Below the pieces are notes generated by a model. The model did not search any database and was not told the origin of the DNA. It was given only the letters and a program-made list of their open reading frames with translations. A stretch of DNA of 64,000 nt from an uncultured Nitrospiraceae bacterium (GTDB lineage Bacteria; Nitrospirota; Thermodesulfovibrionia; Thermodesulfovibrionales; Dissulfurispiraceae). The stretch spans positions 1 to 64,000 of the forward strand of contig CAMTVO010000010.1 in NCBI GenBank assembly GCA_947085205.1. The letters are read 5' to 3'. This document shows, in pieces, positions 1,888 to 47,154 of this stretch. The position numbers were made by a program, and so were the translations under genes. The first letter of the stretch is position 1, and each line of letters starts with the position of its first letter.

Positions 1888-3218
1888 CATAATTTCATTA
1901 TTCTTTTTAATTCTTCGAAAAATCCGGGGAATGATATATCGACACATGATGCATTGTTTATAGTCGTTGTGCCGTCTGCAACAAGCGCAGCTATTGCAAA
2001 CGACATCGCTATCCTATGGTCGTGATAACTCTCTATGAAAGCGCCTTTTAAGTCTGTTCTGCCTTTTATTGATATTCCGTCAGGGTATTCCTCAAGTTCA
2101 ACGTTCATTTTTTTCAATTCAGATGCCATTGCCTTAATTCTGTCCGACTCCTTGACCCTTAATTCTTCAGCGCCTCTTATCTCTGTGATGCCTTCGGCCT
2201 GTGTTGCTAAAACACAAAGGATTGGGAACTCATCAATAAGCGAAGGCATAATCTCTTTGCCTATTTTAACAGCCTTGAGTTTTTGAGTAGACCTGCAGTA
2301 AATATCGGCAACAGGCTCGCCCGAAACATCCCTGACATTTTTGAGTTTGGCTGTTCCGCCCATTTGATTTATGACTTCAAGGAACCCTGTCCTTGTGGGG
2401 TTTATTCCGACGCCTTTAATCAATATCTCAGAATCAGGCGCTATGAGCGCTGCTGCAATAAAAAAAGCTGCGGATGAAAAATCGGATGGAATTGTTATAT
2501 CAATAGGGCTTAACCCCCCTTTAATTGATATAGGGGGGTGACCCTTGACTTTTATTGTAAGACCATCAACTTCTATTTCCGCACCCATTGATTTAAGAAT
2601 CCTCTCTGTATGGTCTCTCGATTTATAAGGCTCTGTTATCAGTGTTGTGCCGTCCGCATACAATCCTGCCAGAATCAGACATGACTTTACCTGAGCGGAT
2701 GCCACAGGCATGGTGTAATCTATTGCCTTAAGTTTTTTGCCTTTTATTGCAATGGGCAGATACTTGTCTTCATCCCTGCCCGAGATTTCCGCTCCCATCT
2801 CTTTAAGCGGATTTATTACTCTTGCCATCGGCCTCTGCTTTAGAGAGTTATCTCCGGTAAGCACGTAAAAAAAGGGATTTCCAGCTAATATTCCCGACAA
2901 AAGCCTTACCGTCGTCCCAGAGTTTCCGCAGTCTATTACATCGAACGGCTCTTTAAGGCCATGCAATCCTTTTCCATGAATTATTATTTCATCCCTTGAC
3001 CCTTGACCCTTGACCCTTGCATCTTCTATTTCAATACCGAGCATTTTAAAGGCATTCATGGTGCTTATCGGATCTTCTGCCCTGAGAAAATTTCTTACAA
3101 TACTCTTTCCGTCCGCCAGAGATGCAAACATCACTGCTCTGTGGGAAATGGATTTATCGGAAGGGACTGTTATTGAACCTTTTAAGGATTTCGCTTTTTT
3201 CAGTTCTATGCGTTCCAT
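1887..3218 (-). CDS. aroA: 3-phosphoshikimate 1-carboxyvinyltransferase (EPSP synthase)
   Basis: PSDKSISHRA, DCGNSGTT, SAQVKS, ELRVKESDRI and DHRIAMS motifs. Confidence 0.97.
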   Translation of the reverse strand: MERIELKKAKSLKGSITVPSDKSISHRAVMFASLADGKSIVRNFLRAEDPISTMNAFKMLGIEIEDARVKGQGSRDEIIIHGKGLHGLKEPFDVIDCGNSGTTVRLLSGILAGNPFFYVLTGDNSLKQRPMARVINPLKEMGAEISGRDEDKYLPIAIKGKKLKAIDYTMPVASAQVKSCLILAGLYADGTTLITEPYKSRDHTERILKSMGAEIEVDGLTIKVKGHPPISIKGGLSPIDITIPSDFSSAAFFIAAALIAPDSEILIKGVGINPTRTGFLEVINQMGGTAKLKNVRDVSGEPVADIYCRSTQKLKAVKIGKEIMPSLIDEFPILCVLATQAEGITEIRGAEELRVKESDRIKAMASELKKMNVELEEYPDGISIKGRTDLKGAFIESYHDHRIAMSFAIAALVADGTTTINNASCVDISFPGFFEELKRIMKL

Positions 3219-3220
3219 CG

Positions 3221-4138
3221 CTATTTCAGCTTCTTTCTCAATTCCTGCGCCTTCAAAAACTCTTTTTCTATTCCGGATGTATTATTTTCTTTAAGATATT
3301 GAGACATATTGTCGAGATTATCCCTGAAGACATCCAGCATCTTGATGATATTGTCTTTGTTGAATATAGATATATCCCTCCACATCTCCGGAGAACTGAG
3401 GGCAATCCTTGTCGTGTCCTTAAAGCCCTGACCTGCGTATCCTATATATTTGGAATCAACATCTCCAACTGTATTTACTAAGGCATAGGCGACAATATGA
3501 GGAAAGTGGCTTACAATTGCATATATTTCGTCATGCTTAAAAGGATCCATCAATTCCACCCTTGCTCCAAGGGTTTTCCATAGGGAAACAACTATCTCCT
3601 GAGAATCCTTATCAGAATTCCCTGTGGGCGTAATGATACATCTCGCATTATTGAACAAATCCGGCCTCGCATCGTCTATACCGGATTTGTCGCTGCCTGC
3701 TATTGGGTGGGAGCCGATATAATAAACTCCATCAGGCATTAAAGATTCCAGTTCATGAACCAGTCCGCCTTTTACGCTTCCCACATCCGTTATCAGTGCA
3801 CCTTTCTTTACAGCGCCTTTTATTTTCTCGGCAATTTCTACGAACACACCAACAGGCGTTGCAAGGAGTATAAGGTCGGAATCTTTGCACGCCTTGCAGA
3901 CATCGAGGCTGCAGTCGTCGATTATCCCGCGCTCCTTTGCCCTTCTGAGATTATCTTCATTCCTGCCATAGCCGTATATGATCTTGCATAAACCATTTTT
4001 CTTTAGAGCAAGGGCAAAGGATGCGCCTAAAAGGCCTACGCCGATAATAGTTACTTTATTAAAAAATATTTCCTTACCTTCACCCCAAAAAATCTCACGA
4101 TTTTTTGGGGAACCCTTAGCTTCTTTACCACTATTCAC
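3221..4138 (-). CDS. tyrA: Prephenate dehydrogenase
   Basis: GVGLLGAS Rossmann motif, DVGSVK, HPIAGSDKSG, HDEIYAIVSHFPH, GFKDTTRIA. Start moved to GTG at 4138, just after the aroF stop. Confidence 0.92.
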   Translation of the reverse strand: MNSGKEAKGSPKNREIFWGEGKEIFFNKVTIIGVGLLGASFALALKKNGLCKIIYGYGRNEDNLRRAKERGIIDDCSLDVCKACKDSDLILLATPVGVFVEIAEKIKGAVKKGALITDVGSVKGGLVHELESLMPDGVYYIGSHPIAGSDKSGIDDARPDLFNNARCIITPTGNSDKDSQEIVVSLWKTLGARVELMDPFKHDEIYAIVSHFPHIVAYALVNTVGDVDSKYIGYAGQGFKDTTRIALSSPEMWRDISIFNKDNIIKMLDVFRDNLDNMSQYLKENNTSGIEKEFLKAQELRKKLK

Positions 4139-4143
4139 CGTCG

Positions 4144-5169
4144 TTATATTTCCCTTCCAACCGCCTGCGCTATCGGCTTTAACTCTTTCATCAATTGCGC
4201 GAACATATCGGGTTTCAAGGACTGTTCGCCGTCTGAAAGGGCCTCTTCCGGATTTGTATGAACCTCTATGATGAGCGCATCCGCGCCGGCGGCCACCGCG
4301 GCCTTTGTCATAGGCGGGACCAGATCCCATTTCCCGACCCCATGGCTCGGATCAACGACAACAGGCAGATGAGTCAATTTCTTAAGCACCGGCACTGCGC
4401 TTAAATCAAGAGTATTCCTTGTTGCGGTCTCGAATGTCCTTATCCCCCTCTCGCAGAGCATCACATTCTGATTGCCTCTTGACATTATGTATTCGGCAGA
4501 CATAAGCCATTCCTTTATGGTTGCGGACAGACCGCGTTTAAGAAGAACAGGCTTGTCAACAGAGCCGACCTCGAGAAGGAGTCTGAAGTTCTGCATATTC
4601 CTTGCGCCTATCTGGATTATGTCCGCATATTCAACGATTACATCCATATCCCTCGGGTCCATTATCTCTGTGATAATAGGGAGTCCTGTCTTTTCCCTTG
4701 CATCTGCAAGGTATCTGAGGCCCTCCTCGCCGAGCCCCTGAAATGAATAAGGAGATGTCCTCGGCTTATATGCGCCGCCTCTCAGAAACGTCGCTCCTCC
4801 ATCCTTCACCTTCTCCGCTATGGTCATCAGTATGGTCTTATTCTCTACAGCACAGGGGCCTGCCATTACAGTCACCTTCTTGCCTCCGATTATTTTTCCC
4901 CTTACATTTATCTCTGAATTTTCCTTCTTGAACTCACGGCTTGCGAGCTTGTACGGCTTTAGTATCCTCACTACATTCTCGACGCCTGTCATTGCGCGGA
5001 TGGCATCCTCTTCTTCCTCCGTCACCTTTGCTGTATCTCCAATTACGCCGATAATAGTCCTCTCAGTACCCTGTGATACTGTCGCCTTAAGCCCTTTACT
5101 TTCAAGCTTTTTAAGGACATGCCTTACATTATCTTCCGTCGTATCAGGACCCAATACTATTATGTCCAT
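4144..5169 (-). CDS. aroF: 3-deoxy-7-phosphoheptulonate (DAHP) synthase, type I-beta with N-terminal regulatory domain
   Basis: [30 protein letters not shown] and DPSHGVG motifs. Confidence 0.96.
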
Positions 5170-5255
5170 AATTTCCTCCTTTTTACTTCGTGATGCGTAA
5201 TGCGTAACGCGTAATGCGTGATGAGATGATGAGTAAGTCTTTCACCCATTACGGA

Positions 5256-6416
5256 TTACGCATCACGCATTACGGTTTTTAATGCTTCTATGAAGCGCTT
5301 ATTTTCTTCCGGCAATCCTATGGTAACCCTTATCTCCTTTGGCCCTACGGGCCTTACAATCACGCCCATTCTCAAGAGCGCCTCATAAATAATCCTTGAC
5401 TCCATATTCAACGGCATATATATGAAATTCGCCTCTGTAGGGACATAGGGAATTCCGATGGAATCGAGTTCTTTATAAAGAAATTCCTTGCCCTGCTCAT
5501 TGAGCTCTATCGACTTTTCCAAATGCTCCTCGTCAGCCAATGCATTCAACGCCGCCTGTTGAGCCATAGTATTCGTATTAAACGGCTCTCTGATTTTATT
5601 CATCTCTTCTATTATGTCTTTCCTCGCTATGCCGTAACCTATCCTAAGACCGGCAAGCCCGTATGCCTTTGAGAATGTCCTCAGAATCAAGATATCACGC
5701 CCCTCCATGAAATACCTGAAAGTGTCGGGATACTCGGAATCCCTCACATATTCGTAATATGCCTCATCCATAACCACAAGGACACCTTCGGGGACATTTT
5801 CCATAAATCTTGAGAACTCATCCTTTTTGTTGATAGCTCCTGTGGGGTTGTTGGGATTTGCAATGAAAACTATTTTCGTTCTTTCGGTAATTGCATCCGC
5901 CATTGTCATCAAGTCATGCCTGTAATCCGTAAGCGGCGCCTCTACAACAGTTCCGCCGACAGATTGAACTGCCATAGAATAGACAACAAACGAAGGAGTT
6001 GCCATTAAAGCCTCATCTCTCTTACACATGAATGTCCTGACGGCAATGTCAATCAGTTCATTTGAGCCGTTGCCCAATATTATTTCATCAGGGCTGACCC
6101 CCCTATAAGTAATCCCCCCTTGCCCCCCTTTAGTAAAGGGGGGATGGGGGGATTCGAGGGGATTTAGGGGGGTAGATAATTTTTTGGATAAGGCATTTTT
6201 CAGATAATAACCATTACCGTCGGGATAGCGGCTTAGTTCATGCCCGTTATGTAAAAATTCCTTTAAAGCCTCCACCACCTTCTTTGAAGCACCAAGAGGA
6301 TTTTCGTTTGATGCCAATTTTATACTGCCTTTTATACCCAGTTCACGTTCGAGTTCCTGTATGGGTTTCCCTGGCACATACGGCTTTATCTTTGATACAT
6401 ATTCCATCGGTTTCAT
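5256..6416 (-). CDS. hisC: Histidinol-phosphate/aromatic aminotransferase
   Basis: KLASNENP, GNGSNELI, NPNNPTG, DEAYYEY, RTFSKAYGLAGLRIGY. Start set at MKPMEY (approximate). Carries an in-frame hairpin insertion. Confidence 0.93.
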   Translation of the reverse strand: MKPMEYVSKIKPYVPGKPIQELERELGIKGSIKLASNENPLGASKKVVEALKEFLHNGHELSRYPDGNGYYLKNALSKKLSTPLNPLESPHPPFTKGGQGGITYRGVSPDEIILGNGSNELIDIAVRTFMCKRDEALMATPSFVVYSMAVQSVGGTVVEAPLTDYRHDLMTMADAITERTKIVFIANPNNPTGAINKKDEFSRFMENVPEGVLVVMDEAYYEYVRDSEYPDTFRYFMEGRDILILRTFSKAYGLAGLRIGYGIARKDIIEEMNKIREPFNTNTMAQQAALNALADEEHLEKSIELNEQGKEFLYKELDSIGIPYVPTEANFIYMPLNMESRIIYEALLRMGVIVRPVGPKEIRVTIGLPEENKRFIEALKTVMRDA

Positions 6417-6438
6417 AGATATAGCTTTCACAGGACTA

Positions 6439-7539: not shown

Positions 7540-7580
7540 GGTTTTTAATAATACAGCAATATTTCTTATTTTTTCAATGA

Positions 7581-14474: not shown

Positions 14475-14590
14475 CCTGTTCTCCTCCTATCATTAGTCAC
14501 TAATAGTCTAGCATTCATTATATTACTTTGTAAGCATATAGTAAAGCCTTTTCTAATCACCCAAATCCCGATTTAGAAATTTTAAAATAG

Positions 14591-14824
14591 TCCCCTCTCC
14601 CTTGACGGGTTAGGGTGAGGGTGAATAGTTCACCTTTAAGGTTACCCCTCCCCTTGCAGGCTGTCCGACTATTATGACAGTGCTGAATGTTAGAATGTAG
14701 GGGCAGAGTAGGGGCAGACCTGCGTGTCTGCCCAAAAGACTATTATCAGCAACATAAAGCAAAATCACATTATTATCGTTAGATTTTCGGGTAATTGTCG
14801 GACAGCCTGTTGACGGGAGGGGGA
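14591..14824. repeat. Cluster of CCCCTCCCCTTGACGGGAGGGG-type hairpin repeats, one split by a MITE
   Basis: TCCCCTCTCCCTTGACGGGTTAGGGTGAGGG, plus CCCCTCCCCTTG...ACGGGAGGGG flanking the 14657..14809 insert. Related copies at 33140-33296. Confidence 0.75.
14657..14809. mobile_element. 153-bp MITE with 18-bp TIRs and a 3-bp target duplication (TTG)
   Basis: CAGGCTGTCCGACTATTA ... TAATTGTCGGACAGCCTG (1 mismatch). TTG on both sides (14654-56, 14810-12). Internal REP GTAGGGGCAGACCTGCGTGTCTGCCC. Confidence 0.8.
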
Positions 14825-26965: not shown

Positions 26966-28519
26966 ATGGCTAAATCATTGATGATACAAGGAACAGGGTC
27001 AGGCGCGGGCAAAAGCCTGATTGTTGCTGCACTGTGCAGGATTTTCAGGGATATGGGCATAAATGTAGCGCCTTTCAAGGCTCAGAACATGGCGCTGAAT
27101 TCTTACATAACTCCAGACGGCGGAGAGATAGGAAGGGCGCAGGCATTGCAGGCAGAGGCAGCAAAGATAGAACCTACAGTGGACATGAATCCGGTATTGC
27201 TCAAGGCATCGGGAGAGATGGGTTCGCAGGTGATTATCCACGGCAGAGTTCACTCTACCATGAAAGCAAGAGAGTATTATTCCTTTAAAAAAGAGGCATG
27301 GGAAGCTGTAAGGGCTTCTTACGACAGGCTTTCAGAAAATCATGAACTCATAATCATGGAAGGAGCCGGAAGTCCTGCTGAGATAAACCTGATGGATGTC
27401 GATATCGTAAACATGGCTGCTGCAAGATATGCAAAGGCGCCTGTAATCTTGGTCGGAGATATAGATAAAGGGGGTGTATTTGCGTCTCTTTACGGAACCG
27501 TTAAGCTCCTCGGAAAAGAGAGCAGGCACATCAAGGCATTTGTAATTAATAAATTCCGCGGCGACTTGGAGATACTCAGATCAGGACTTGAGATGATAAA
27601 GGACAAAACAGGAAAACCCGTAATAGGAGTGCTGCCCTATATAAAAGATATAGGCTTGCCTGAAGAAGATGGACTTGTCTTATGTCACGGTTCACGGTTC
27701 ACGGTTCACGGTTCACGGGGAATTAAGATTGTTGTAGTGAAGCTGAAGTATATATCTAACTTCACTGATTTTGACCCGTTCTTATGCGAGCCTGATGTGG
27801 AACTCATATATTCCCGCAATACGGCAGATATAGAAAATGCAGATATGGTAATCGTCCCGGGCTCGAAGAATACAATAAAAGATCTGCTGTTCCTAAAAGA
27901 AAACCATCTTGATGAAAGCATTAAAAAGGCATATGCAAAAGGTATAAATATTATAGGCATGTGCGGAGGATACCAGATGCTCGGCAAAAAGATATACGAC
28001 CCGCACTGTGTAGAAAGCTTACATAAAGAAATCGACGGCATCGGACTGCTGAACATAGAGACCGCATTCGAGAAAACAAAGGTAACATCACAAGTAGAAG
28101 CGGAACTGGTTGATGGCTCATGGCTCATGGCTCATGGCAATAAAAACTATCAGCTATCAGCTATCTGCTATCAGCCGCTAAGAGGCTATGAGATTCATAT
28201 GGGACAAAGCACAGGCGATATAGGACTTTTTAAAATAAAAAGAATTTCATCCGGCTCGGAACTCTCAATTCTAAACTCTAAACTCGTTTATGACGGTTCT
28301 AAAAACGGTAACTGTTGGGGGACTTACATGCATGGGATTTTTGAGAATGATTCATTCAGGAGAGGAATCATCAACAGACTGAGGAAACAGAAAGGATTAC
28401 CACCCATCGACCCATCAATCGTATATTCCGAGATTAAAGACAATGCTATCGATAACCTCGCAGATGCCGTAAGAGAAAATATAGATATGGATTTCATAAA
28501 GAGGATTGCAAAGATATGA
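26966..28519 (+). CDS. cobQ: Cobyric acid synthase (CobQ/CbiP)
   Basis: QGTGSGAGKS, PFKAQNMALNS, EGAGSPAEINL, SNFTDFDP, GMCGGYQMLG, GTYMHG. Confidence 0.96.
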   Translation: MAKSLMIQGTGSGAGKSLIVAALCRIFRDMGINVAPFKAQNMALNSYITPDGGEIGRAQALQAEAAKIEPTVDMNPVLLKASGEMGSQVIIHGRVHSTMKAREYYSFKKEAWEAVRASYDRLSENHELIIMEGAGSPAEINLMDVDIVNMAAARYAKAPVILVGDIDKGGVFASLYGTVKLLGKESRHIKAFVINKFRGDLEILRSGLEMIKDKTGKPVIGVLPYIKDIGLPEEDGLVLCHGSRFTVHGSRGIKIVVVKLKYISNFTDFDPFLCEPDVELIYSRNTADIENADMVIVPGSKNTIKDLLFLKENHLDESIKKAYAKGINIIGMCGGYQMLGKKIYDPHCVESLHKEIDGIGLLNIETAFEKTKVTSQVEAELVDGSWLMAHGNKNYQLSAICYQPLRGYEIHMGQSTGDIGLFKIKRISSGSELSILNSKLVYDGSKNGNCWGTYMHGIFENDSFRRGIINRLRKQKGLPPIDPSIVYSEIKDNAIDNLADAVRENIDMDFIKRIAKI

Positions 28520-29559
28520 CGGACTTTATTAATACTTCACCGTTTATTCTTCATCCTTTAATCCTTGTTGCAGCACTTCTGCTTGACTTCGCCATAGGAG
28601 ACCCGAGATGGCTGCCTCATCCTGTGAGGATTATCGGAGGCGCGATAAGTAGGATAGAAAAATTTTTTAGGATATATTTTAAGACGCCTTTTCAGGAAAA
28701 ATTCGGCGGCATTTTTCTTGCTGTAATAATCGCTGTTCCCGTGTTCGGGATTGTAGTTATTATACAAAAGGCATTCTTGTCAATTGCGGTATCCTCTTAT
28801 ATCTCCACCGCTCCATTACTCCAATACTCCATGAATATCTTCGTAGTGATTTTCCTTGTATATCTCACATCAACCACAATCGCTGTAAAAGAATTAGTCA
28901 ATTCTGCAAGACTTGTAATAGAAGCCGTAAAAGATAAAGACCTCGACTCCGCAAGGAAAAATCTCGGAATGATTGTCGGACGCGATACGAAAAACCTATC
29001 AGAGAAAGGGATATTGAAGGCAACCATAGAAACCTTGGCGGAAAATCTCTCGGACGGAATCATAGCGCCGTTATTTTATCTTGCCATAGGCGGACTTCCG
29101 CTTGCCGTAACATATAAGGCGATAAACACTCTCGATTCAATGGTAGGCTACAAAAACGAAAGATACAAAAACTTCGGGTGGGCATCGGCGCGGCTTGACG
29201 ACATCGCCAATTATATCCCTGCAAGAATAACAGGTATCATTATTGTTGTAGTATCGTTCTTTGTTTCCCATTCACTGTCTACTATTCACTGTTCACTATT
29301 CACTATGTTACGCGACGGTAAAAAACATACAAGCCCGAATGCAGGTATTCCAGAAGCGGCAATGGCAGGAGCGCTCGGCGTCATGCTCGGAGGCCCTTCG
29401 ACGTATGGAGACGTTATTGTAGAGAAACCTCATATTGGAAAAAATATCGAAAAAGACTATCTAAAGGCATCAGAAAATACGACATTGATTGTAAAAATTG
29501 CCTCATTTCTCAGTATCGGAATTGCTGCAATCATTTTATACATAAGGGGACTTCCATGA
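28516..29559 (+). CDS. cbiB: Adenosylcobinamide-phosphate synthase
   Basis: GDPRWLPHPV, IVGRDT, AENLSDG, YKAINTLDSMVGY, SPNAG.PEAAMAG. Confidence 0.95.
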   Translation: MTDFINTSPFILHPLILVAALLLDFAIGDPRWLPHPVRIIGGAISRIEKFFRIYFKTPFQEKFGGIFLAVIIAVPVFGIVVIIQKAFLSIAVSSYISTAPLLQYSMNIFVVIFLVYLTSTTIAVKELVNSARLVIEAVKDKDLDSARKNLGMIVGRDTKNLSEKGILKATIETLAENLSDGIIAPLFYLAIGGLPLAVTYKAINTLDSMVGYKNERYKNFGWASARLDDIANYIPARITGIIIVVVSFFVSHSLSTIHCSLFTMLRDGKKHTSPNAGIPEAAMAGALGVMLGGPSTYGDVIVEKPHIGKNIEKDYLKASENTTLIVKIASFLSIGIAAIILYIRGLP

Positions 29560-30668
29560 AATATTTAGAGCCTCACGGCGGCAACATATATAGGACAGCA
29601 GAAAGATTGGGAATAGCTGAAAACAACATAATAGACTTCAGCGCATCCATAAATCCCCTCGGAGTTCCTAAAAGCGTTGAGTCAGCCATAAAAAACGATA
29701 GCAGATATCTTTATAATTATCCAGACCCTGATGCAACACAACTCAGACTACAGATTGCAAAATACCATAATATCAAGCCTGAATCCATCATATGTGGCAA
29801 CGGTAGCACGGAATTGATATATCTTGTTGCAAAAGCTTTAAGACCAAAGAGGACTTTAATGCCTGCGCCCACATTTTCTGAATACGAAAGGGCGTGCAGA
29901 ATGAGTTATGAGGTAAGAGTTATGAGTTATAAGTTAAAAAAAGAAAACAATTTTGATATAAATCCTGATGAATTTATATCGGCTATAAACCGGAATCTAC
30001 CCCCCCACCCCCCCCTTATTAAGGGGGGGAGTAGGGGGGGTAATATGGCTTTTCTCTGCAATCCAAACAATCCTACAGGCAGGCTACTCAAAAAGGAAGA
30101 CGTGCTGAAAATCGCAAATGCTGCAAAACGGCTTAAATGCTACCTGATAGTTGATGAGGCATTCATAGACTTCCTGCCTGAACATTCTGTAATGAAAGAA
30201 GTTAAAAACAATCCGTATCTTATTGTGCTGCGCTCTATGACAAAATTCTATGCACTGTCCGGGCTTAGACTCGGCTATGGAATATTCCCATTAAAAATTA
30301 TAAGAACTCTTCAGGAACAGAAAGAACCATGGACAGTAAATACCCTTGCGCAAAAAGCAGGCTTGGCTGCACTCAATGACGCTGCTTATAGGAATAAAAC
30401 TTTCAAACTTATCCCTAAAGAGAAAAAATTTATGGAAGAAGGATTCAAAAAGCTGCGCATAGATTATATCCCTTCATCTGCCAATTATTACCTGATAAGA
30501 TTAGACAATGCGGGTAGGAAAATAACTTCACTCCGCAAAAAAGGTATTCTGGTGAGGGATTGTTCGAATTTTGAAGGACTTGATGGCTCTTATATCAGGG
30601 TTGCGGTTAAGAGTCGCAAAGATAATGCAAGGCTGCTCAAGGAGATATCTCAATGCCTAAAGGCTTAG
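29556..30668 (+). CDS. cobD: Threonine-phosphate decarboxylase
   Basis: HGGN, DFSASINPLG, CNPNNPTG, DEAFIDF, RSMTKFYALSGLRLGY. Confidence 0.93.
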   Translation: MKYLEPHGGNIYRTAERLGIAENNIIDFSASINPLGVPKSVESAIKNDSRYLYNYPDPDATQLRLQIAKYHNIKPESIICGNGSTELIYLVAKALRPKRTLMPAPTFSEYERACRMSYEVRVMSYKLKKENNFDINPDEFISAINRNLPPHPPLIKGGSRGGNMAFLCNPNNPTGRLLKKEDVLKIANAAKRLKCYLIVDEAFIDFLPEHSVMKEVKNNPYLIVLRSMTKFYALSGLRLGYGIFPLKIIRTLQEQKEPWTVNTLAQKAGLAALNDAAYRNKTFKLIPKEKKFMEEGFKKLRIDYIPSSANYYLIRLDNAGRKITSLRKKGILVRDCSNFEGLDGSYIRVAVKSRKDNARLLKEISQCLKA

Positions 30669-32110
30669 TGATAGCAGGCACCCACAGCGGCTGCGGCAAG
30701 ACGACCGTAACACTCGGCATCCTTGCGGCCTTAAAGAAAAAGGGATTGCATGTGCAGTCATTTAAGACAGGGCCTGATTTTATAGATGCAGGTCTTCACA
30801 GGCTCGTTACAGGCAGGCATGCAAGAAACCTTGATATATGGATGTGCGGAGAGGACTATGTAAAATCTTGTTTTTATAAACACGCTGCGGATGCCGATAT
30901 TTCGGTTGTGGAAGGCGTGATGGGCATGTATGATGGTGAGTTCAGCACAGCAATGCTTTCAACTATGCTAAACCTTCCAATAATCCTTGTTGTCGATGCT
31001 TATGGGATGGCCGAAAGCGCAGGCGCGGTTGTGAAAGGATTTGTGGAGTTCTGGAAAGAGAATACCCCCCCTGATATCCCCCCCTTATTAAGGGGGGGAA
31101 TAGGGGGAGTGATGGGTGTTATCTTCAATCGAGTCGCCTCAGAGAGCCACTTTAAAAGGCTCAAAAACAATGTTCAGGATGTGCCTGTTTTAGGTTATCT
31201 TCCGAGAAATCTGAATTTCGAGATTCCTCACCGACATTTGGGACTGACCGTTGCAGAAGAAAATCCGATTGCCTCCGAAAACATAGAAAGGCTTGCAGAT
31301 GCAGTGTTAGAACATATAGATGTTACCCTATTAGTGCGGAAGTGCGGAAGTGGCAATGTAAGGGCAGACCTGCGTGTCTGCCCAAAAGACAAAAAAGGCG
31401 AACACATAGGTTCGCCCCTACAAAGCTTCCGAACTTCTGACCTAAAGGTCGCCATTGCATACGACAAGGCATTCTGTTTTTATTATGAGGATAATCTTGA
31501 CTTACTAAAAGAAGCAGGCGCTGAAATAGTAACATTCAGCCCTCTCTCTGATTCAAGGATTCCTGATAATATTGATGCCTTATACATCGGCGGCGGTTAT
31601 CCGGAGCTTTGGGCAAAGGAATTATCACAAAACACATCAATGCTTAAAGCTGTCCACGACTGGGCAGATTCGGGAAGGCATGTATATGCAGAATGCGGAG
31701 GGTTGATGTACCTATCTCAAGGAATTCACGATTTTGACGGCAATTTCTTTAAAATGGCCGGTATTTTCCCATTTGAAACACAAATCCCCCCCTACCCACC
31801 TTTAGCAAAGGGGGGCAAGGGGGGATTGCGGCCTCATTTAGGCTACAGGGAAATCATTTTAAAAGAAGACTGTATCCTCGGCAAAAGCGGCTACAGATGC
31901 AGAGGGCACGAGTTCCATTATTCCGAGATAAAGCAGCCGGCAGTCGGCAACTGTTGCATTATCTTTAATAATAAAGGGCAGAATATGGGAAGTGAAGGGT
32001 ACAGGTATAAAAATACCATTGCGAGTTACATGCATGTGCATTACGGCAGCAATCCTGACATTGCAAGGAATTTTATAAATTTTATAAGGGAGACATCATG
32101 GAAAACATAA
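30653..32110 (+). CDS. cbiA: Cobyrinate a,c-diamide synthase
   Basis: SGCGKTT, GPDFID, EGVMGMYDG, RHLGL, AECGGLMYL, HEFHYS; cob operon context. Confidence 0.93.
   Translation: MPKGLVIAGTHSGCGKTTVTLGILAALKKKGLHVQSFKTGPDFIDAGLHRLVTGRHARNLDIWMCGEDYVKSCFYKHAADADISVVEGVMGMYDGEFSTAMLSTMLNLPIILVVDAYGMAESAGAVVKGFVEFWKENTPPDIPPLLRGGIGGVMGVIFNRVASESHFKRLKNNVQDVPVLGYLPRNLNFEIPHRHLGLTVAEENPIASENIERLADAVLEHIDVTLLVRKCGSGNVRADLRVCPKDKKGEHIGSPLQSFRTSDLKVAIAYDKAFCFYYEDNLDLLKEAGAEIVTFSPLSDSRIPDNIDALYIGGGYPELWAKELSQNTSMLKAVHDWADSGRHVYAECGGLMYLSQGIHDFDGNFFKMAGIFPFETQIPPYPPLAKGGKGGLRPHLGYREIILKEDCILGKSGYRCRGHEFHYSEIKQPAVGNCCIIFNNKGQNMGSEGYRYKNTIASYMHVHYGSNPDIARNFINFIRETSWKT
31358..31420. repeat. REP-like doublet inserted in frame in cbiA
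   Basis: GTAAGGGCAGACCTGCGTGTCTGCCC ... GGCGAACACATAGGTTCGCCCCTAC. The first arm is nearly identical to the REP inside the 14657..14809 MITE. Confidence 0.8.
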
Positions 32111-33135
32111 TACTCATAGGACACGGAAGCCCTAAAAAAGATGCTAATAACATCGAGCTCACAGGCAGGCTCCTGCACAGTGCAATTCATCCCAACTGTA
32201 ATAACAACTGCGTAAAGGTCGCGTACCTGCAGTTTGCAGAGCCTGAGATTGCAGACGCAATTAGAGATTGTGTCCAGAACGGCGCTAAAAGAATAATTCT
32301 GCATCCATATTTTTTAAGCAGCGGTATGCATGTTACAAAAGATATACCTGAAATAATAAAAGAATCTGAGAAGAAATATCCTGATACAGAATTTGTTTAT
32401 ACAGAGCCGCTCGGCATCCATGAGAAATTAGTCCATGTGGTAATCGAAAGGATATGCTCTGCAAACGGACTTCTGCCGCAGGAGATAGAAAAGAGGAGCT
32501 TTGAGATAATCTCCGAGGAAATTGATTTGAGCGGTGTGCCGCCAGAGCAGTTACCGATTATAAAACGGGTGATACACGCTACTGCTGATTTTGAATTCAA
32601 AAATACGCTTATGTTTCATCCCGATGCCATTAAAGCAGGGGTTGATGCAATACGTGCAGGAAAAGACATTCTCACTGATGTCGAAATGGTAAAGACAGGA
32701 ATAAACAGAAGGCTCCTCGAAAAATGGGGAGGACGAGTAATCTGCAATATACAGAAGACAGAAGACAGAAGGCAGAAGTCAGAAATTAAAACAAAGGCAG
32801 AGACCGGAATTGAAATAGCATTAAAAGAAAATAACAACATCGGAATAATAGCCATCGGCAATGCCCCGACTGCCCTGCTTAAGACAATTGAGCTTTTAAA
32901 CTCCGAACTCCGAACGGCTCGACTGAGCTCGCCGAAGTCTCCGAACTCTGAACTTTTAGTTATCGGCGTTCCAGTAGGCTTTGTCAAAGCGCTCGAATCA
33001 AAGGCGCTGCTCGCAGCGCAGAAATTCCCGTTTATAACAAACTTGAGCAGAAAGGGCGGCACTCCTGTGGCAGTCGCAATAATAAACGCATTATTAAAAA
33101 TAGAGGCTCTTTCTCAAATTGAGTGGGTAACATAG
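32098..33135 (+). CDS. cbiX-cbiC: CbiX cobaltochelatase - CbiC precorrin-8X methylmutase fusion
   Basis: N-terminal IGHGSP...PYFLSSGMHVTKDIP; C-terminal RVIHATADF, IGNAPTAL, PVGFV, RKGGTPVA. Confidence 0.9.
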   Translation: MENIILIGHGSPKKDANNIELTGRLLHSAIHPNCNNNCVKVAYLQFAEPEIADAIRDCVQNGAKRIILHPYFLSSGMHVTKDIPEIIKESEKKYPDTEFVYTEPLGIHEKLVHVVIERICSANGLLPQEIEKRSFEIISEEIDLSGVPPEQLPIIKRVIHATADFEFKNTLMFHPDAIKAGVDAIRAGKDILTDVEMVKTGINRRLLEKWGGRVICNIQKTEDRRQKSEIKTKAETGIEIALKENNNIGIIAIGNAPTALLKTIELLNSELRTARLSSPKSPNSELLVIGVPVGFVKALESKALLAAQKFPFITNLSRKGGTPVAVAIINALLKIEALSQIEWVT

Positions 33136-33139: not shown

Positions 33140-33296
33140 TCCACTCCTTCTTAACCGGGGAGACAACCCAAATATTCCCTCCCCATTTGACGGGGGAGGG
33201 TGGGGGTGATAGAATGTTGTTTTCACCCTCCCCTTAATCCCCTCCCGTCAAGGGAGGGGAAACTAAAAGGAGTGTCTCCCGTCAAGGGTGGGGAAT
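33140..33296. repeat. Cluster of C-run/G-run hairpin repeats
   Basis: CCCTCCCCATTTGACGGGGGAGGG, CCCCTCCCGTCAAGGGGAGGGG and further partial copies. Confidence 0.75.
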
Positions 33297-33363
33297 TTAT
33301 CCACTTGAAATGAGAAAGAGCCAAAACTTTTGACAATACGATTAAAAACCGAGGAGGTTTATT

Positions 33364-40297: not shown

Positions 40298-40298
40298 T

Positions 40299-41050: not shown

Positions 41051-41236
41051 TTAAATCTCAGTTATCGTAATTGCATTAGGTGCGCAGACCTGCAAACATG
41101 TCTCACAAAAAACACATTCAGATGACTGATACGGATCAGACTTTCCGTCAACCATTCTAAATACTTCTTGCGGACATTGATTGACACACTCTTCGCATCC
41201 TTCACACTTAGCTGTATCCACTGTCACAATGTACAT
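41051..41236 (-). CDS. 2[4Fe-4S] ferredoxin
   Basis: CEGCEECVNQCP and CVFCETCLQVCAP. Confidence 0.92.
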   Translation of the reverse strand: MYIVTVDTAKCEGCEECVNQCPQEVFRMVDGKSDPYQSSECVFCETCLQVCAPNAITITEI

Positions 41237-41283
41237 CTTCTAATCACCTCCCTAATAATTTCATCTACTTAAGTCTATAATCA

Positions 41284-41601: not shown

Positions 41602-41602
41602 A

Positions 41603-43156
41603 TTATACCCCCTCTTTTGCGCCAAGTACTATTGCCCTGCCTACTAACTGATGTATCCCTCCGACCTCTTCCATCGGATAGCCATAAGTTGGGAACATCT
41701 TGCTCATTTGCGCCTTGCAAATTGCACAGATAAGGGCAAGGAAGTTTACATCGTGGCTGTCCTTTACTGCCTTTACTGCCTGCATCCTCGGCATGGCTCC
41801 CTTCACCCTTATTGGCAGCATATCATCACCGAGGAGCCCCTGCCCTGCACCACAACAGAATGTCTTTTCTTTGATTGTATTTTCAGGCATGTCAACATAC
41901 TTATTAACACACGCCTTTATTACTGCCCTCGGTATCTCGTATTGTCCGTGTGCTGAACCTCCCATCTCCATTCCCCTCGCAACCTGACAGGAGTCATGGA
42001 AGGTTACGGTAAACGCATCATTTGCAGACTTATCAAGCTTCAAAGCGCCTTTATTTATAAGGTCAAGTGTAAATTCGCATATATGTTGAGGTATCGGGTG
42101 CTTCGGGTCAAGAAAGTCAAATGGTCCCCATAATGTGTTACTGTATGAGGACAGCACCCTCCACATATGACCACACTCACCACCTACAACCCTTTTAACA
42201 CCTAACTCCCTCGCTGCATCCCATATCCTCTTGTTGATAATTTTTACATGGTTGTAGTTGCTTGAAAATAATCCGAAGTTTCCACCCTCTGATGCATATG
42301 TGCTCATTGTCCAACTGATGCCTGCCTGGTGAAAGACCTTTGCATACCCGTAGAGGGATTCAATATGGGGCGATGCGAAAAAGTCTGCTGAAGGTGTCAC
42401 AAAAAGCACTTCTGCACCCTTTACATCCAGCGGGATCTTTATATCCATTCCTGTCTGGTCTTTCAAATCACTCTCTACAAATTCAATGGAATTTCTCACA
42501 GCATCAGGAATCATACCGAGATTGTTTCCTATATACTGAGCCTTATCAATAATCTCGTGCATATACTTCTGGACCAGTCCAACGCTGTTGAGGATCTCCC
42601 TTGCAGCCATTGTAATCTCTGCTGTATCTATTCCGTAAGGGCAAAAGACAGAGCAGCGTCTGCATTCAGAACACTGATAGAAATAGATATACCATAATGC
42701 AAGCAGCTCTTCACTTAACTCTTCAGCAGCGCCGAGAGACTTGCCAAATACTTTGCCCGGGGTTGTGAAGTATCTCCTGTAAACCCTCCTCATCAACTCT
42801 GCCCTTGCAACAGGCATATTGAGGGCGTCTTTGGTCCCGAGGAAGAAATGGCACTTGTCTGCGCATGCGCCGCATCTCACGCATATATCCATGAAGAGCT
42901 TCACAGACCTGTATTTCCGTAATATTTCATCGAATTTCTCAAGGAACTTTGTCTTCCAGTCAGGGATGAGTCCTTCTATTGGATAGCCAAGCCTCTGCAG
43001 GGCATCTTTATTTTTAAAGAGCTGTGATGTGTACTTTCTGGATGCAAACTCTTCTATCTTTGGAGTTTCTACCATTCCTGTAAGATCAGGCACTTCGTAT
43101 TTTATCTTTTCCCATTTAATTAACTCTTCCACATTCTTCTCTACTTCTGTCCCCAT
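41603..43156 (-). CDS. dsrK: DsrK (heterodisulfide reductase-like Fe-S subunit)
   Basis: CVRCGACADKC, CSECRRCSVFCP, GECGH, FHDSC, FCCGAG, CAIC. Start at ATG 43156 after GGAGGG. Confidence 0.95.
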   Translation of the reverse strand: MGTEVEKNVEELIKWEKIKYEVPDLTGMVETPKIEEFASRKYTSQLFKNKDALQRLGYPIEGLIPDWKTKFLEKFDEILRKYRSVKLFMDICVRCGACADKCHFFLGTKDALNMPVARAELMRRVYRRYFTTPGKVFGKSLGAAEELSEELLALWYIYFYQCSECRRCSVFCPYGIDTAEITMAAREILNSVGLVQKYMHEIIDKAQYIGNNLGMIPDAVRNSIEFVESDLKDQTGMDIKIPLDVKGAEVLFVTPSADFFASPHIESLYGYAKVFHQAGISWTMSTYASEGGNFGLFSSNYNHVKIINKRIWDAARELGVKRVVGGECGHMWRVLSSYSNTLWGPFDFLDPKHPIPQHICEFTLDLINKGALKLDKSANDAFTVTFHDSCQVARGMEMGGSAHGQYEIPRAVIKACVNKYVDMPENTIKEKTFCCGAGQGLLGDDMLPIRVKGAMPRMQAVKAVKDSHDVNFLALICAICKAQMSKMFPTYGYPMEEVGGIHQLVGRAIVLGAKEGV

Positions 43157-43959
43157 TTTTCCCTCCATTGCTCCATTGACCATGGTTTGTAGGCATCAGG
43201 TTTTCCTTCAGCCTCTGCCAGTCTTTTACCCCACTCCTCATCTGCCCATGGATTGATATGTCTCTTTGTCCTCGGGTTGTTGACCATTGCCCTTGTTGGT
43301 GTTATGAAAACACCTCCGGCATGCATCAGCTTACTAAACGGAAAGAGGAAAATCAAAAGCAACACCATTATAAGATGCAGAATAAACATGCCGTCCAGAG
43401 AGTCAGGCAAGGGTATGGGACTTAATGCCATTAAATGAAGCATAAAGTCCTTTATGTCTACAATAATAGGCCTTGCGACATATTTCATTATCAGTCCTGT
43501 TGTTCCGATTGCAATTATCAGTGCAGGATAAAGGTAATCCATAAAATTTGAAATATATCTTACTCTGTCAATAGCAAGTCTTCTTAACAGGAGATAGAGC
43601 AGTGAAAGAACCAGCGTGAATCCTGCATAAATTCCGATCTCTGAGAAAAACATAACCCATTCTGGAACAGGATAAAAGAAGTAGCGGAGATGCCTCAGAA
43701 TAACAATCAGGAATGAAAGATGAAAAATGTATCCACCAAGCCAGAGGCCTTTGTCCGCAGCAAAGAGACTCCGGAAAAGAACAACCTCGCTCAACACCCT
43801 CAGCGCTGTCCCCCCCTGTGTTACAGGAGCAGGTCCTGTCGGGATTTTAAGAGGATTTGGAGAGGCAAGCCATCTTGCAAAATGGCCAACAAAACCAATT
43901 ATGAAAATACATGTTACGGCATATACCAAAACTGCAAAAATAATTCTATCTGTTCCCAT
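43141..43959 (-). CDS. dsrM: DsrM (NarI-like membrane cytochrome b)
   Basis: FRSLF, WLGGYIFH, RHLRYF, RYIS...DY, FPFSKLMHAGG, HINPW. Confidence 0.93.
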   Translation of the reverse strand: MGTDRIIFAVLVYAVTCIFIIGFVGHFARWLASPNPLKIPTGPAPVTQGGTALRVLSEVVLFRSLFAADKGLWLGGYIFHLSFLIVILRHLRYFFYPVPEWVMFFSEIGIYAGFTLVLSLLYLLLRRLAIDRVRYISNFMDYLYPALIIAIGTTGLIMKYVARPIIVDIKDFMLHLMALSPIPLPDSLDGMFILHLIMVLLLIFLFPFSKLMHAGGVFITPTRAMVNNPRTKRHINPWADEEWGKRLAEAEGKPDAYKPWSMEQWREKWGQK

Positions 43960-43973
43960 ATGCTCCCCTCTCT

Positions 43974-44017
43974 AAAACAAAGGCAATGCCTTTATAAAAG
44001 CCATTGCCTTTGTTTTT
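43974..44017 (-). terminator. Terminator after dsrC
   Basis: AAAACAAAGGCAATG...CATTGCCTTTGTTTT inverted repeat. Confidence 0.75.
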
Positions 44018-44041
44018 AAATTGTTATCGGCTTTTCTGGGT

Positions 44042-44377
44042 TTACACGCAGCCTGTTGGCTTTGGCAGCCCTGCATATCTACATGCCTGTTTTGCAGGTC
44101 CATCTGGGAAGAGCTCGTAAAGGTACTTTGTATTGCCCTTCTCAGGTCCCATTATCTTGGCGATCTCCTTCACGAGGATCTTTATCATTGGGGCAATCTG
44201 ATATTTCTGATAGTAATCCCTCAGGAAGTTTATAACCTCCCAGTGGCCTTCTGTTAGCGTTAAACCATCCTGTTTTGCCATCTGCTCACCGAGATCCTTT
44301 GTCCAGTCGTCAAGGTTTACAAGATACCCGTCCTCGTCCACCTCGATTTGTTTCTCCTGAAAATCAACTGTTGGCAT
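44042..44377 (-). CDS. dsrC: DsrC sulfur carrier
   Basis: DEDGYL, HWEVI, C-terminal ACRYAGLPKPTGCV with both conserved Cys. Confidence 0.97.
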   Translation of the reverse strand: MPTVDFQEKQIEVDEDGYLVNLDDWTKDLGEQMAKQDGLTLTEGHWEVINFLRDYYQKYQIAPMIKILVKEIAKIMGPEKGNTKYLYELFPDGPAKQACRYAGLPKPTGCV

Positions 44378-44521
44378 TGTGCTACCTCCTTTCTCTGTTT
44401 TAATTTTGTTGAAGATTATACTACTATCGATGGTTTTTATTCAAAACAAAAGTGGTAAGAAAATAATATAGACTTATAAGCCAGGTCAAATAAAATAATA
44501 TTATATATATATTTGCTATTT

Positions 44522-45616
44522 TTATTTATTCTGTTGAGTAACTATCTTATTTATTGCTTCTTTAACTATTTCGCTAACCGTTTTCTTTATCAGCTCTCCA
44601 TCATGATAAAAATTTATTGTGCTGGCATCGTTTACAAGGCTGCTTATATCCTCCGAAAGGATCTTCTCTCCAAGGATTCCGACAACCCATGCGGCATGTC
44701 CCCTGACAGAAGGATTGCTGTCCTTTATCATTAGCTGCAAATCTTTTAATATAAATTTAACAAGGTCCGGCCTAACAGCAGCTATCCGCCCCATTGCCCA
44801 TATTACGCCCGCCCTGAACATCTCTTCATCACGGAAAGACCATACTATGGGAATAATGTCGCTGAATTCATCCGGATCGCTTCTGATAATCTCCCCAAGC
44901 ATATCTGCGGCGCTCCATCCGATGCCTCCCGACTCCTCGCGCATAGACCACAAAAGTCTCCTGATTGTGTCCCTTATCACGTCTCTCCTGTCTCTTGACA
45001 ACTCTCCTGCTACTATTCCTATTGCCTCTATTGCCCTCCAGCTTATGACATCTTCCTTATCGTATGCCAGAGAAATGAGACGCCTCATTACGCCTTTATC
45101 CATTTTTGCAATCTCTGTGATTGCATTGTATGAGCTGGTTTCCAAAAAATTCCTGATCCTGCCCTTCAAGTCTCGCTTTTCTGGCATCCACTCTTCCTCT
45201 GTATTATTTTGATTCTTATTTTCGTTTTTGTCATTGCGAGCAGAAGGCGAAGCAATCTTGAAATTATTGGATTGCTGCGGCATATCATGCTCCTTGAGTT
45301 TAACAAAAACAAGCTTTCCCCTTGCTTCACCGCCCATTCCGGTCGAATAAAGCCTCATATGGTTTTTTAAATCATAACCCATATCCTGAGTCTGATAGTC
45401 CGCTTCTTCTCCGATGAGGTTTATATCCCAGTCTCCCTTTGCCATTGCAAGGGCTTCCATGTAAGCCTCTCCTGCATTATGCCCTGTCGGGTCGCAGACA
45501 TAAACAGCACCGCAGTCGCATTTCCCGCTCAGCACTTCACCAAACTCCGTCCTCGTTTCCTCTGGACGGGCAATATAACGTCCGCAAAACGGGCATTCAG
45601 ACGGATATTTATTCAT
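44522..45616 (-). CDS. Cys-motif plus HEAT-repeat protein (DVU0298-like C-terminal region)
   Basis: N-terminal CPFCG...CDCGAVYVCD; C-terminal WRAIEAIG, RRLLWSMREESGGIGW, VRGHAAW. Confidence 0.7.
   Translation of the reverse strand: MNKYPSECPFCGRYIARPEETRTEFGEVLSGKCDCGAVYVCDPTGHNAGEAYMEALAMAKGDWDINLIGEEADYQTQDMGYDLKNHMRLYSTGMGGEARGKLVFVKLKEHDMPQQSNNFKIASPSARNDKNENKNQNNTEEEWMPEKRDLKGRIRNFLETSSYNAITEIAKMDKGVMRRLISLAYDKEDVISWRAIEAIGIVAGELSRDRRDVIRDTIRRLLWSMREESGGIGWSAADMLGEIIRSDPDEFSDIIPIVWSFRDEEMFRAGVIWAMGRIAAVRPDLVKFILKDLQLMIKDSNPSVRGHAAWVVGILGEKILSEDISSLVNDASTINFYHDGELIKKTVSEIVKEAINKIVTQQNK
45230..45258. repeat. GTCATTGCGAG...GAAGCAATC palindromic repeat in frame
   Basis: GTCATTGCGAGCAGAAGGCGAAGCAATCT in the interdomain linker (reads KIASPSARND on the minus strand). 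Confidence 0.6.
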
Positions 45617-45633
45617 AGCTCATAGTTCATAAT

Positions 45634-47154
45634 TCATGGTTTATAGTCCTTGCTATCAGCTACAAGCCATGAGTTGCGAGCTAATTTATACTCCTTTGCG
45701 TTTCTTATAAGTCCTTCGACCCATTCCCTTGTGCCGAGGGCGTGAATATGCGTGTACGTGGCAAGGACATTTTTATAACATATGCCGTCCATTTTATCTT
45801 TTATACCATGGCCCCTCTTCATTCTGAATGCTGAGTATACCCCCCCTAATCCCCCCCTTAATAAGGGGGGATTAGGGGGGGTGAAAGAATTCTCCACAAC
45901 AGCCGAATAATGGAATTCATGTCCGTGCAGCAAAGTCCCTACAGGATAAAATGGGTTTTCTTTCTCCACCTCAACAATTGTATATCCGTGCGCCTGAGGC
46001 TTATTTTTCATTTCAAAAGTTATTGGAAAGATGTCCACCATCGGATATTTTTTGCCTTCGACTATAATGGAGTTTCCCAGAAACATCAGTCCTCCGCACT
46101 CCGCGTAGATCGGAAGGCCGTTTTCTGCCGAGTTTTTCAAAGAACTTCTGAATTCAGCATTCTCTGCAAGCCTTATGGCATTGGTCTCAGGAAAGCCTCC
46201 GCCGATGTAGAGGGCATCAATATCCGGCAGATGTTTATCTTCAAGTGCATTGATTTTGACAATCTCCGCACCGTTTCTCTGGAGTTCTTCGATGTTTTCA
46301 GGATAATAGAATTGAAATGCGGAATCTCTTATAACACCGATTCTAATTTTATCCGAAACGGTGAATGGGTGATACGGTGAATCGGTGAATGAATGAACGG
46401 ACATGTCTTCTCCATTTCTCCATTTCTCCGTTTCTCCGTTTCTCACATAAAGTAGTTCAGCTTCCTTTGCGATATTTATTATCCCATCAATATCTATATA
46501 TTTCTTCGCAATCTCCCCCACAAATGATATCGCATTCTCCATATCGCGGTGCTCTTGATACGGCGTCAGGCCCATGTGGCGTTCAGGGAACTCTCCTTCC
46601 TTCAATCTCGGCATTGCACCGAGAACAGGCATTGAACAATATTTCTCAACAGAGGCACGCACTACTGATTCGTGCCTGCTTCCTGATACCTGATTCAGAA
46701 CAACTCCTTTTATTCTGACATCTTTATCGAGATTCATACAGCCCAGAACAACTGCTGCAGCAGTTCTTGTCATCTTTGTGCAGTCAATTACGAGTATCAC
46801 AGGCGATTTTAAAAGTTTTGCAAGCTCTGCAGTGCTGTAAGAGCCTTCCGTATCCATGCCATCATAAAGCCCCCTGTTGCCCTCTATAACCGCAATATCG
46901 CCTTTAAAATGCGATATAAAGGAATCCCTTACCTTTTCTTTCGATATGAGAAATGGGTCGAGGTTATAGCATGGATTCGCTGCTGCAACAGACATCCAGC
47001 CTGCGTCTATAAAATCCGGCCCTTTTTTAAAGGGGATAACCTTGAAGCCTTTCTGAGACCTGAATGCGGCAATAATTCCGAGAGAGAGGGTCGTCTTTCC
47101 GCTTCCGCCTCTAATTCCGGCAATAGTCAAACGGGGATAATTATTCATGGACAT
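45634..47154 (-). CDS. dsrN: DsrN siroheme amidase (CbiA paralog)
   Basis: GGSGKT, KKGPDFIDAGW, EGNRGLYDG, ERHMGL; directly downstream of dsrABD. Confidence 0.88.
   Translation of the reverse strand: MSMNNYPRLTIAGIRGGSGKTTLSLGIIAAFRSQKGFKVIPFKKGPDFIDAGWMSVAAANPCYNLDPFLISKEKVRDSFISHFKGDIAVIEGNRGLYDGMDTEGSYSTAELAKLLKSPVILVIDCTKMTRTAAAVVLGCMNLDKDVRIKGVVLNQVSGSRHESVVRASVEKYCSMPVLGAMPRLKEGEFPERHMGLTPYQEHRDMENAISFVGEIAKKYIDIDGIINIAKEAELLYVRNGETEKWRNGEDMSVHSFTDSPYHPFTVSDKIRIGVIRDSAFQFYYPENIEELQRNGAEIVKINALEDKHLPDIDALYIGGGFPETNAIRLAENAEFRSSLKNSAENGLPIYAECGGLMFLGNSIIVEGKKYPMVDIFPITFEMKNKPQAHGYTIVEVEKENPFYPVGTLLHGHEFHYSAVVENSFTPPNPPLLRGGLGGVYSAFRMKRGHGIKDKMDGICYKNVLATYTHIHALGTREWVEGLIRNAKEYKLARNSWLVADSKDYKP

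Follow-up and report, generated by a model that had tools for sequence, protein, structure and literature searches.

How does one short palindrome come to stand, in frame, in a series of unrelated enzymes of the same bacterium? The question is raised by positions 1 to 64,000 of contig CAMTVO010000010.1 (assembly GCA_947085205.1), a stretch of 64,000 nucleotides, hereafter the window, from an uncultured Nitrospiraceae bacterium. A first-pass annotation, made from the letters alone, had pointed to six related C-run/G-run hairpins in aroA, hisC, cobD, cbiA (two copies) and dsrN, and interpreted them as a mobile element which resembles Rickettsia palindromic elements (RPE), reads as Pro...Gly from either strand and remodels proteins throughout the genome. 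We conclude that the repeat is almost certainly a real insertion element and that, very probably, it has a common origin with the ends of small cassettes carrying a DUF559 nuclease gene. We also lean towards the view that it is a selfish, gene-less unit of BoxC type, spread by the DUF559 nuclease and tolerated in host proteins as a near-neutral loop.

All six hairpins were found where they had been reported, each read in the coding frame of a gene that stays open (Table 1). In the full unit a C-tail of 9 bases is followed, after 2-3 bases, by a 9-bp C/G hairpin whose loop has 3 bases; another 2-3 bases separate this hairpin from a G-tail of 9 bases. A repeat finder places five of the six window copies in one family, and the five full copies fold as nested hairpins (z = -2.5 to -4.6) in programs that treat hairpins only. 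The hisC copy probably represents an insertion nested within an older, degenerate one. The annotation had anticipated clean insertions in multiples of three, which is not what we observed: copies bounded by AATC..GATT measure 44 bases (five copies) or 45 bases (four copies), and net gains run from 6 to 25 residues. A unit length that is itself a multiple of three is thereby ruled out, and it can be inferred that the frame is maintained by the junctions and by selection rather than by element length.

Assembly artefact, one of the outcomes that would have undone the original proposal, was also ruled out, as separately assembled contigs of public sequencing runs carry the aroA, hisC, cobD and cbiA copies. 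Contigs of run X1, possibly the source sample, pass gap-free through the cobD copy and both cbiA copies, and two of them hold both hisC junctions. The second cbiA copy is spanned with 0 differences by a contig of X2, both cobD junctions are present with 0 differences in two contigs of X5 (a run from another study), and a 151-base contig of X4 spans the aroA copy. Many other contigs have loose ends at 6111/6154 and 31827, which indicates that these positions mark the edges of the element.

The genome-wide spread which had been suspected was borne out in the genome under study (G000; assembly of 1.885 Mb, 90% complete). A profile hidden Markov model (HMM) built from 18 copies detected 34 copies at a threshold of at least 20 bits, the maximum in the reversed genome being 13.3 bits, and a regular expression for the core gave 45 matches vs 7 in each of two Markov simulations. 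Thirty-two of these 34 copies stand in frame in genes, one lies between convergent genes and one beside the sole DUF559 gene; no out-of-frame copy was found among them. Outside the cassette, 1 of 33 copies is thus intergenic, which agrees with gene density (9% intergenic). The host proteins, examined in sets of 25 and 7, are functionally unrelated and, by Pfam and NCBIfam, include IleRS, ThiL, PrmC, a KsgA-type methylase, RNase R, GlnD, homoserine dehydrogenase, NnrD, TatD and others. The 28 cores that could be parsed from the 32 coding copies use two open frames 13 and 14 times, and the third frame is without a stop in just 1 of 28 on each strand. Whichever open frame is used, C runs would be translated as Pro and G runs would give Gly. 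Both orientations indeed yield Pro...Gly, as the annotation had proposed, the peptides being predicted from the frame; none of the public runs listed as carrying this DNA was of RNA. Concealment of intergenic copies at contig breaks was considered and rejected: a C5/G5 run occurs near (up to 60 bases from) only 2 of 130 contig ends, against a background of 2.9%, in an assembly that is 90% complete.

The same habit extends to relatives: sampling of six other genomes from the family gave 20 copies, all 20 in open frames. A scan of species genomes yielded at least 125 stretches, of which 80 were listed (8 of them on short contigs). Among the matches listed, 35 of 44 were in frame in Nitrospirota/Nitrospinota vs 5 of 28 in other phyla, by a test that also lets through 72% of random windows overlapping genes and 12% of those between genes. 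The element is therefore cross-phylum, and its coding habit is specific to this lineage. An exact copy in an open frame was also noticed in a record labelled Promethearchaeota (L337), which could be a binning error.

Insertion was evaluated against orthologs of the host proteins (AroA from 18 genomes with 19 loci, HisC from 12 of 16 fetched regions, CobD from 21 of 23, CbiA from 23 of 23 and DsrN from 18 of 18), and in most of them the inserts are absent. Site 2 of cbiA is clean, in that none of the 23 orthologs has the insert and 15 codons stand in place of 4. At the HisC site, orthologs have at most a 5-residue extra (4 of 12). The remaining four sites (aroA, cobD, cbiA site 1 and dsrN) are variable loops that hold other inserts in other genera; CbiA site 1 contains the same element in G015 and a variant in G019, and a different AroA loop holds the same element in G002 and G005. 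The expected placement in loops was supported by AlphaFold models of HisC and CbiA, in which the inserts are predicted to fall between secondary-structure elements at low model confidence. In HisC, the predicted local distance difference test (pLDDT) score drops below 50 over residues 85-100, a segment flanked by helix 67-81 and by strand 112-115; in CbiA, it is near or below 50 at residues 144-150 and 384-390. The claim that the element remodels proteins proved overstated, given the four variable loops and the low in-frame proportion outside Nitrospirota/Nitrospinota. Taken together, the lineage-specific coding bias and the loops filled otherwise in relatives indicate that tolerance is largely a property of host and site.

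A similar comparison was possible in G071, which has 55 copies vs 0-1 in its congeners. Six of ten fetched sites were compared. One is a clean empty site in three congeners, relative to which G071 has gained 54 bp; at three sites the congeners have different heptamer arrays in the same position, and at two they have other short inserts. It looks as if repeat families replace one another in fixed loop slots. Neither cbiA site 2 nor the clean G071 site has a visible target duplication, in comparisons with partners whose identity is only about 77-86% (DNA) or 70% (protein). At the sets of loci L236/L256-L259, L241/L264-L267 and L242/L268-L270, one loop position was seen to hold, within one genus, a different short repeat in almost every species.

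Occupied slots of this kind could also arise by host-driven turnover, whereby the structure of the triplex repeat itself would stall replication, breaks would follow and host repair would copy the repeat into repeat-filled loops, with DUF559 cassettes as passengers that target or capture repeats. This would suit the five of six G071 sites with other inserts in congeners, the four variable loops of the window and the lineage-specific coding bias. It would also suit the abundance of short arrays in the genome (273 of period 7 and 42 of period 8, mostly inside rough gene calls, vs 3 and 0 in a Markov control). In addition, TM loci have been described as unstable in E. coli (PMC4666352) and REPs as targets of insertion sequences (PMC3184786). 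Such turnover leaves unexplained several features described below, namely the inward orientation that triplex ends consistently have around DUF559, the clade-linked end types, the tail/arm mirror maintained across clades, and a gene-less pair at 33177-33262 with a spacer like cassette end sequence. We therefore consider it rather unlikely.

Retention of copies for a host function, either phase variation by slippage of C/G runs or translational pausing by poly-proline and an mRNA hairpin, would be compatible with the runs of 6-8 C or G bases that stand in coding frames, with a coding excess beyond neutral filtering and with the sites common to several genera. However, the 34 copies include none out of frame, the hosts have no function in common, independent contigs show no indel at the inserts (though contigs drop rare variants), and orthologs either have no insert or carry unrelated peptides. 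This explanation is thus highly improbable.

The tails of the repeat suggest a structure beyond the hairpin. We re-implemented the class II triplex rule from Holder et al. 2015 (PMC4666352), i.e. a pyrimidine stem, a purine stem and a reverse-Hoogsteen third strand, with stems of 6-15 nt, loops of 1-6 nt and at most one mismatch. Thirty of the 34 genome copies conform to the rule (22 on both strands), all five full window copies included; the aroA remnant failed it and was also unscored by the profile HMM. At DUF559 cassettes the rule also holds for most upstream ends on the coding strand (76 of 95) and for most downstream ends on the opposite strand (74 of 97), vs 4 of 1500 random windows. 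Circularity was avoided in a separate mirror test, for which hairpins were found by Watson-Crick pairing alone in 113 of 192 flanks, representing 89 distinct ends. Here the tail mirrors its own arm at 7.08 of 8 positions (G for G, A or T for A), vs 5.85 +/- 0.09 with tails swapped among ends (0/2000) and 5.62 when scored as a direct repeat. At least eight arm patterns occur, each paired with its own mirror tail; the ends are related and not independent, yet the pattern shifts with clade. Since purine-motif triplexes cannot form in RNA, as stated by Holder et al., the selected structure is probably DNA rather than RNA.

DUF559 had been named as a candidate partner ahead of the search and was then found bracketed by hairpins in G000, so that the search for a mobiliser, which the annotation had advised, delivered a candidate. 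This sole DUF559 gene of the genome is open, matches PF04480 with 125.8 bits, has related hairpins on both sides and encodes a protein matching PDB 3HRL (E 8e-24). Throughout the order, 97 DUF559 loci were examined, comprising 92 of 114 matches (the 22 omitted being mostly partial or weaker) and 5 others. A script detected C/G hairpin flanks at 89 of the 97 strong loci, and the usual cassette order is hairpin with G-tail, start codon, gene, and C-tail with hairpin. Hairpins were absent at five weak Vsr-like matches (in G027, G001, G021 and, twice, G016). Ends of the window subtype bracket DUF559 genes of one nuclease clade (L044, L178 and L196 in our numbering), and the stop codon of the DUF559 gene at L340 is where an exact window-type unit starts. 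On a quick nuclease tree, end types (labelled A or B by a score threshold) are clustered, with 13 changes vs 19.4 after shuffling (0/500 shuffles), and host families are mixed across the tree. Core copies vary patchily from 0 to 206 per genome in 201 genomes of the order. When DUF559 presence was defined by a match at E<=1e-15, at least 10 core copies were counted in 25 of 66 positive vs 10 of 135 negative genomes (odds ratio 7.6, or 9.5 when stratified by family; kin genomes are not independent).

In the window itself, both halves of the intergenic pair at 33177-33262 resemble the two ends of the DUF559 cassette L154, and the right half together with the spacer aligns to the downstream end of L154. 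Around this pair lies a longer inverted repeat with its arms at 33083-33130 and 33297-33344; the sequence of this outer repeat recurs at 47217-47250 and also borders several DUF559 cassettes of relatives. Elsewhere in G000, a 1052-aa gene situated 3.7 kb away from the DUF559 cassette includes, in frame, a near copy of that cassette's 120-bp 3' end (C42:6022-6146, L138). In G015, three near-identical, internally truncated DUF559 cassettes stand at separate loci (L049, L051 and L053), which suggests that deletion derivatives get copied. Direct repeats of at least 22 bases surround 9 of 95 cassettes, a weak sign of circle integration for which there is no control. Phage carriage was set aside, as 11 viral loci gave weak DUF559-like matches only (26-58% over part, E>=3e-6). 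DUF559 cassettes were also observed in frame within larger genes resembling restriction-modification subunits (L162, L169, L181, L037 and L227), and related TM-like hairpins of G000 likewise occur mainly in restriction-modification-like genes.

The in-frame cassettes bear on another possible origin of the repeat, as a scar: a whole DUF559 cassette would insert in frame with its tails outward, after which recombination between the hairpins would remove the nuclease, the short unit itself being immobile. Outward in-frame cassettes do exist (L162 and L169), and such an origin would account for the double-tailed form being coding and the inward pairs intergenic. Nevertheless, it would require dozens to hundreds of tolerated 150-residue insertions per genome in small enzymes (up to 206 copies), while complete outward in-frame cassettes were found at only 2 of 97 loci, both of another subtype and none in G000, which makes it quite improbable. 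Still less probable, to the point of being almost dismissible, is movement by a RAYT-type (Y1 HUH) transposase, as with GTAG REPs. G000 does have one Y1_Tnp match and five GTAG-type repeats; however, no repeat copy is present in the 2.1-kb locus around the Y1_Tnp gene (which ends at the contig end), the element is without a GTAG or CGTC tag, and its hairpins cluster at DUF559 instead.

According to the mechanism that we favour, spread by DUF559, each cassette end would, in the form of single-stranded DNA, fold into a hairpin to which the G-tail adds a third strand (a purine-motif triplex). DUF559, a nuclease of Vsr/EDxHD type, would recognise and nick this folded end, and host repair would insert the unit elsewhere, in most cases at the expense of a few codons and with no visible target duplication. 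The double-tailed form might represent a right end joined to a left end at a common hairpin, derived from a circle or tandem junction or left as a scar after loss of an in-frame cassette. The loop would put a stop in one of three frames on each strand, and selection would retain only in-frame copies in permissive loops, often those already occupied by other short repeats.

Several observations weigh against this mechanism. Intergenic copies are rarer than the frame and placement filter predicts (expected 25-57%, P<=0.0009), for which the mechanism gives no explanation. ThiL, a histidine kinase and cbiA site 1 carry copies at matching positions in different genera, which might indicate that part of the set is old and inherited. 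As for the triplex, a perfect hairpin for the mirror test was found in just 113 of 192 flanks, and Holder et al. (PMC4666352) report TM guanines without in vivo protection and no link to mobile elements in E. coli. The clustering of end types is loose, the threshold-based A/B label needing 13 changes, 7 of them forced by starred branches. The correspondence between copies and nuclease is likewise incomplete: the 10 DUF559-negative genomes with at least 10 copies hold up to 68, and 41 of 66 positive genomes hold fewer than 10. The DUF559 of G000 belongs to another clade with a different loop/end subtype, and a cassette with exactly window-type ends was not found in the 90%-complete G000 assembly. 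Finally, the G000 cassette and its nearest relative in G036 have flanking sequence in common, so the cassette may ride a larger restriction-modification island rather than move alone.

Among known repeats, the RPE analogy of the first-pass annotation held with respect to in-frame palindromes in open genes, while the closest DNA family turned out to be the BoxC/PIT/TM triplex repeat. In-frame palindromes have been published for RPE, GTAG/CGTC REPs and others (PMC3733652, PMC3184786). Like RPE and intragenic REPs as described there, the repeat is a palindrome in frame in unrelated housekeeping genes, sometimes twice per gene, and presumed neutral in loops. Unlike RPE, it measures 44-45 bp vs about 105-146 bp (table of Delihas 2011, PMC3184786) and is probably unrelated in sequence, and it differs from both RPE and GTAG REPs by the missing GTAG or CGTC tag, the triplex-type mirror tail and a candidate nuclease partner. 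With REP/REPIN-RAYT systems it has in common a small nuclease gene between inverted repeat copies, along with gene-less copies scattered elsewhere; however, the bracketed gene is DUF559 (Vsr-like PD-(D/E)XK fold) instead of an HUH tyrosine transposase, and the mirrored purine tail replaces the GTAG tag.

The BoxC/PIT/TM family (TMECO) is similar in its build (a C-rich stem, a G-rich stem and a G-rich third strand, each of 9 bases, with short loops between them), in copy number that is patchy among relatives and in inverted pairs, such as that at 33177-33262. In contrast to the TMECO consensus, window stems are, by inspection, plain C6-7/G6-7 with TT/AA closing pairs, and tails on both sides allow both strands to conform to the class II rule. 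TMECO is always intergenic in E. coli K-12, and no mobile-element link was seen, according to Holder et al. (PMC4666352), whereas our repeat is in frame in 32 of 34 copies and tied to DUF559. The repeat thus conforms to the general class II triplex rule and is neither an RPE, nor a REP/RAYT element, nor a strict TMECO member. Other G000 hairpins are nearer to the TMECO stem than the window-type repeat, and a degenerate TM-like copy was noticed in the window at 14588-14625. DUF559 has been placed in one group with Vsr and with the homing endonuclease of a group I intron (PMC3424549), its placement in the Vsr/EDxHD group being also drawn from PMC9403480. EDxHD/Vsr-like homing endonucleases such as I-Bth0305I (PMC3239194) represent the same nuclease group, a fold with a precedent for mobility. 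The present cassettes differ from these in having no intron or intein, in a protein of about 125 aa without an added DNA-binding domain, and in many unrelated sites rather than one homing site.

A literature search, covering titles and the starts of abstracts and leaving most subscription journals outside its coverage, returned no paper that links DUF559 to these repeats or places them in Nitrospirota proteins. New here are the double-tailed, almost wholly coding variant in Nitrospirota, the covariation of tail and arm, the order-wide association with DUF559 and the loop slots exchanged between repeat families. BoxC/TM repeats have, to our knowledge, been without an assigned function since the 1990s, and the present reading joins them and the DUF559 nuclease, both orphans, into one testable element. 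The tail/arm mirror across nuclease clades provides comparative evidence for selection on a DNA triplex, which in vivo footprinting had not shown. If DUF559 indeed reads and moves the triplex, this would be a new mobility chemistry beside RAYT/REP; if it is a mere passenger, we would be left with one more lineage with RPE-like inserts, of modest interest. For protein evolution, the recurrent filling of the same loops by selfish repeats, here in a free-living lineage, offers a natural map of insertion-tolerant sites, and for annotation, such Pro/Gly peptides should be regarded as derived from repeats, not as motifs. Much more tentatively, and with considerable doubt on our side, DUF559 could be the mobiliser of widespread, undescribed minimal selfish elements with triplex ends, the third strand co-evolving with the enzyme and BoxC/TM being gene-less offspring; in each Nitrospirota genome, dozens to hundreds of proteins would then acquire Pro-Gly loops as these repeats take over loop slots held by other repeats.

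Table 1. Copies of the repeat and their host genes in the window (net gain in residues, approximate, over the shortest state among orthologs)
Feature	Positions	Strand	Net gain	Description
aroA	1887..3218	-		Host, 443 aa
aroA remnant of the repeat	2513..2539	-	+6	Outer C-tail and G-tail, inner hairpin lost; in frame; gain vs insert-free orthologs
hisC	5256..6416	-		Host; ATG start at 6416, upstream TTG would give 6476
hisC copy	6111..6154	-		Full double-tailed 44-bp unit, in frame
Older degenerate copy around the hisC copy	6097..6173	-	+25	Gain of whole insert vs insert-free orthologs
cobD	29556..30668	+		Host, 370 aa
cobD copy	29997..30043	+	+15	Full, in frame
cbiA/cobB	30653..32110	+		Host, 485 aa; two copies of the repeat and one GTAG-type repeat
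cbiA site 1 copy	31064..31110	+	+15	Full, in frame, aa 138-152; loop with other inserts in relatives
cbiA site 2 copy	31783..31827	+	+11	Full 45 bp, in frame, aa 378-392
Gene-less DUF559-cassette derivative	33177..33262	+		Intergenic; hairpin and G-tail, 13-base spacer, C-tail and hairpin
dsrN-type cobB homologue	45634..47154	-		Host, 506 aa, adjoins dsrAB
Copy in dsrN-type cobB homologue	45838..45883	-	+11	Full, in frame

The host genes were confirmed by NCBIfam matches above cut-offs for AroA, HisC, CobD and two proteins of the CobB/CbiA family, the second of which owes the name dsrN to its dsrAB neighbourhood. Alanyl-tRNA synthetase was not retained among the examples of intact essential hosts, since the assembled part of it is limited to the C-terminal 570 residues (C15:43309-45021, L117). 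Four N-terminal motifs were not found in the G000 assembly, and the gene starts abruptly beside a stretch with an integrase fragment and what is, by eye, probably a serine recombinase.

Other short repeats are present in the same region. An unrelated GTAG-type REP-like inverted pair stands in frame in cbiA (31358-31421, + strand), in a linker of CbiA modelled with pLDDT below 50 (residues 234-260); this family has five members in the genome, four of them within rough gene calls, and another site in the window at 14708-14733. In cyanobacteria, Elhai et al. reportedly described in 2008 very small mobile repeats (SDR) with nested copies and an association with heptamer tandem arrays. In-frame heptamer or octamer arrays are found in the window at 2995-3018 (aroA), 27674-27716 (cobQ), 28257-28284, 28791-28832 and 29264-29310 (cbiB), and further arrays at 32749-32803 and 51927-51981.

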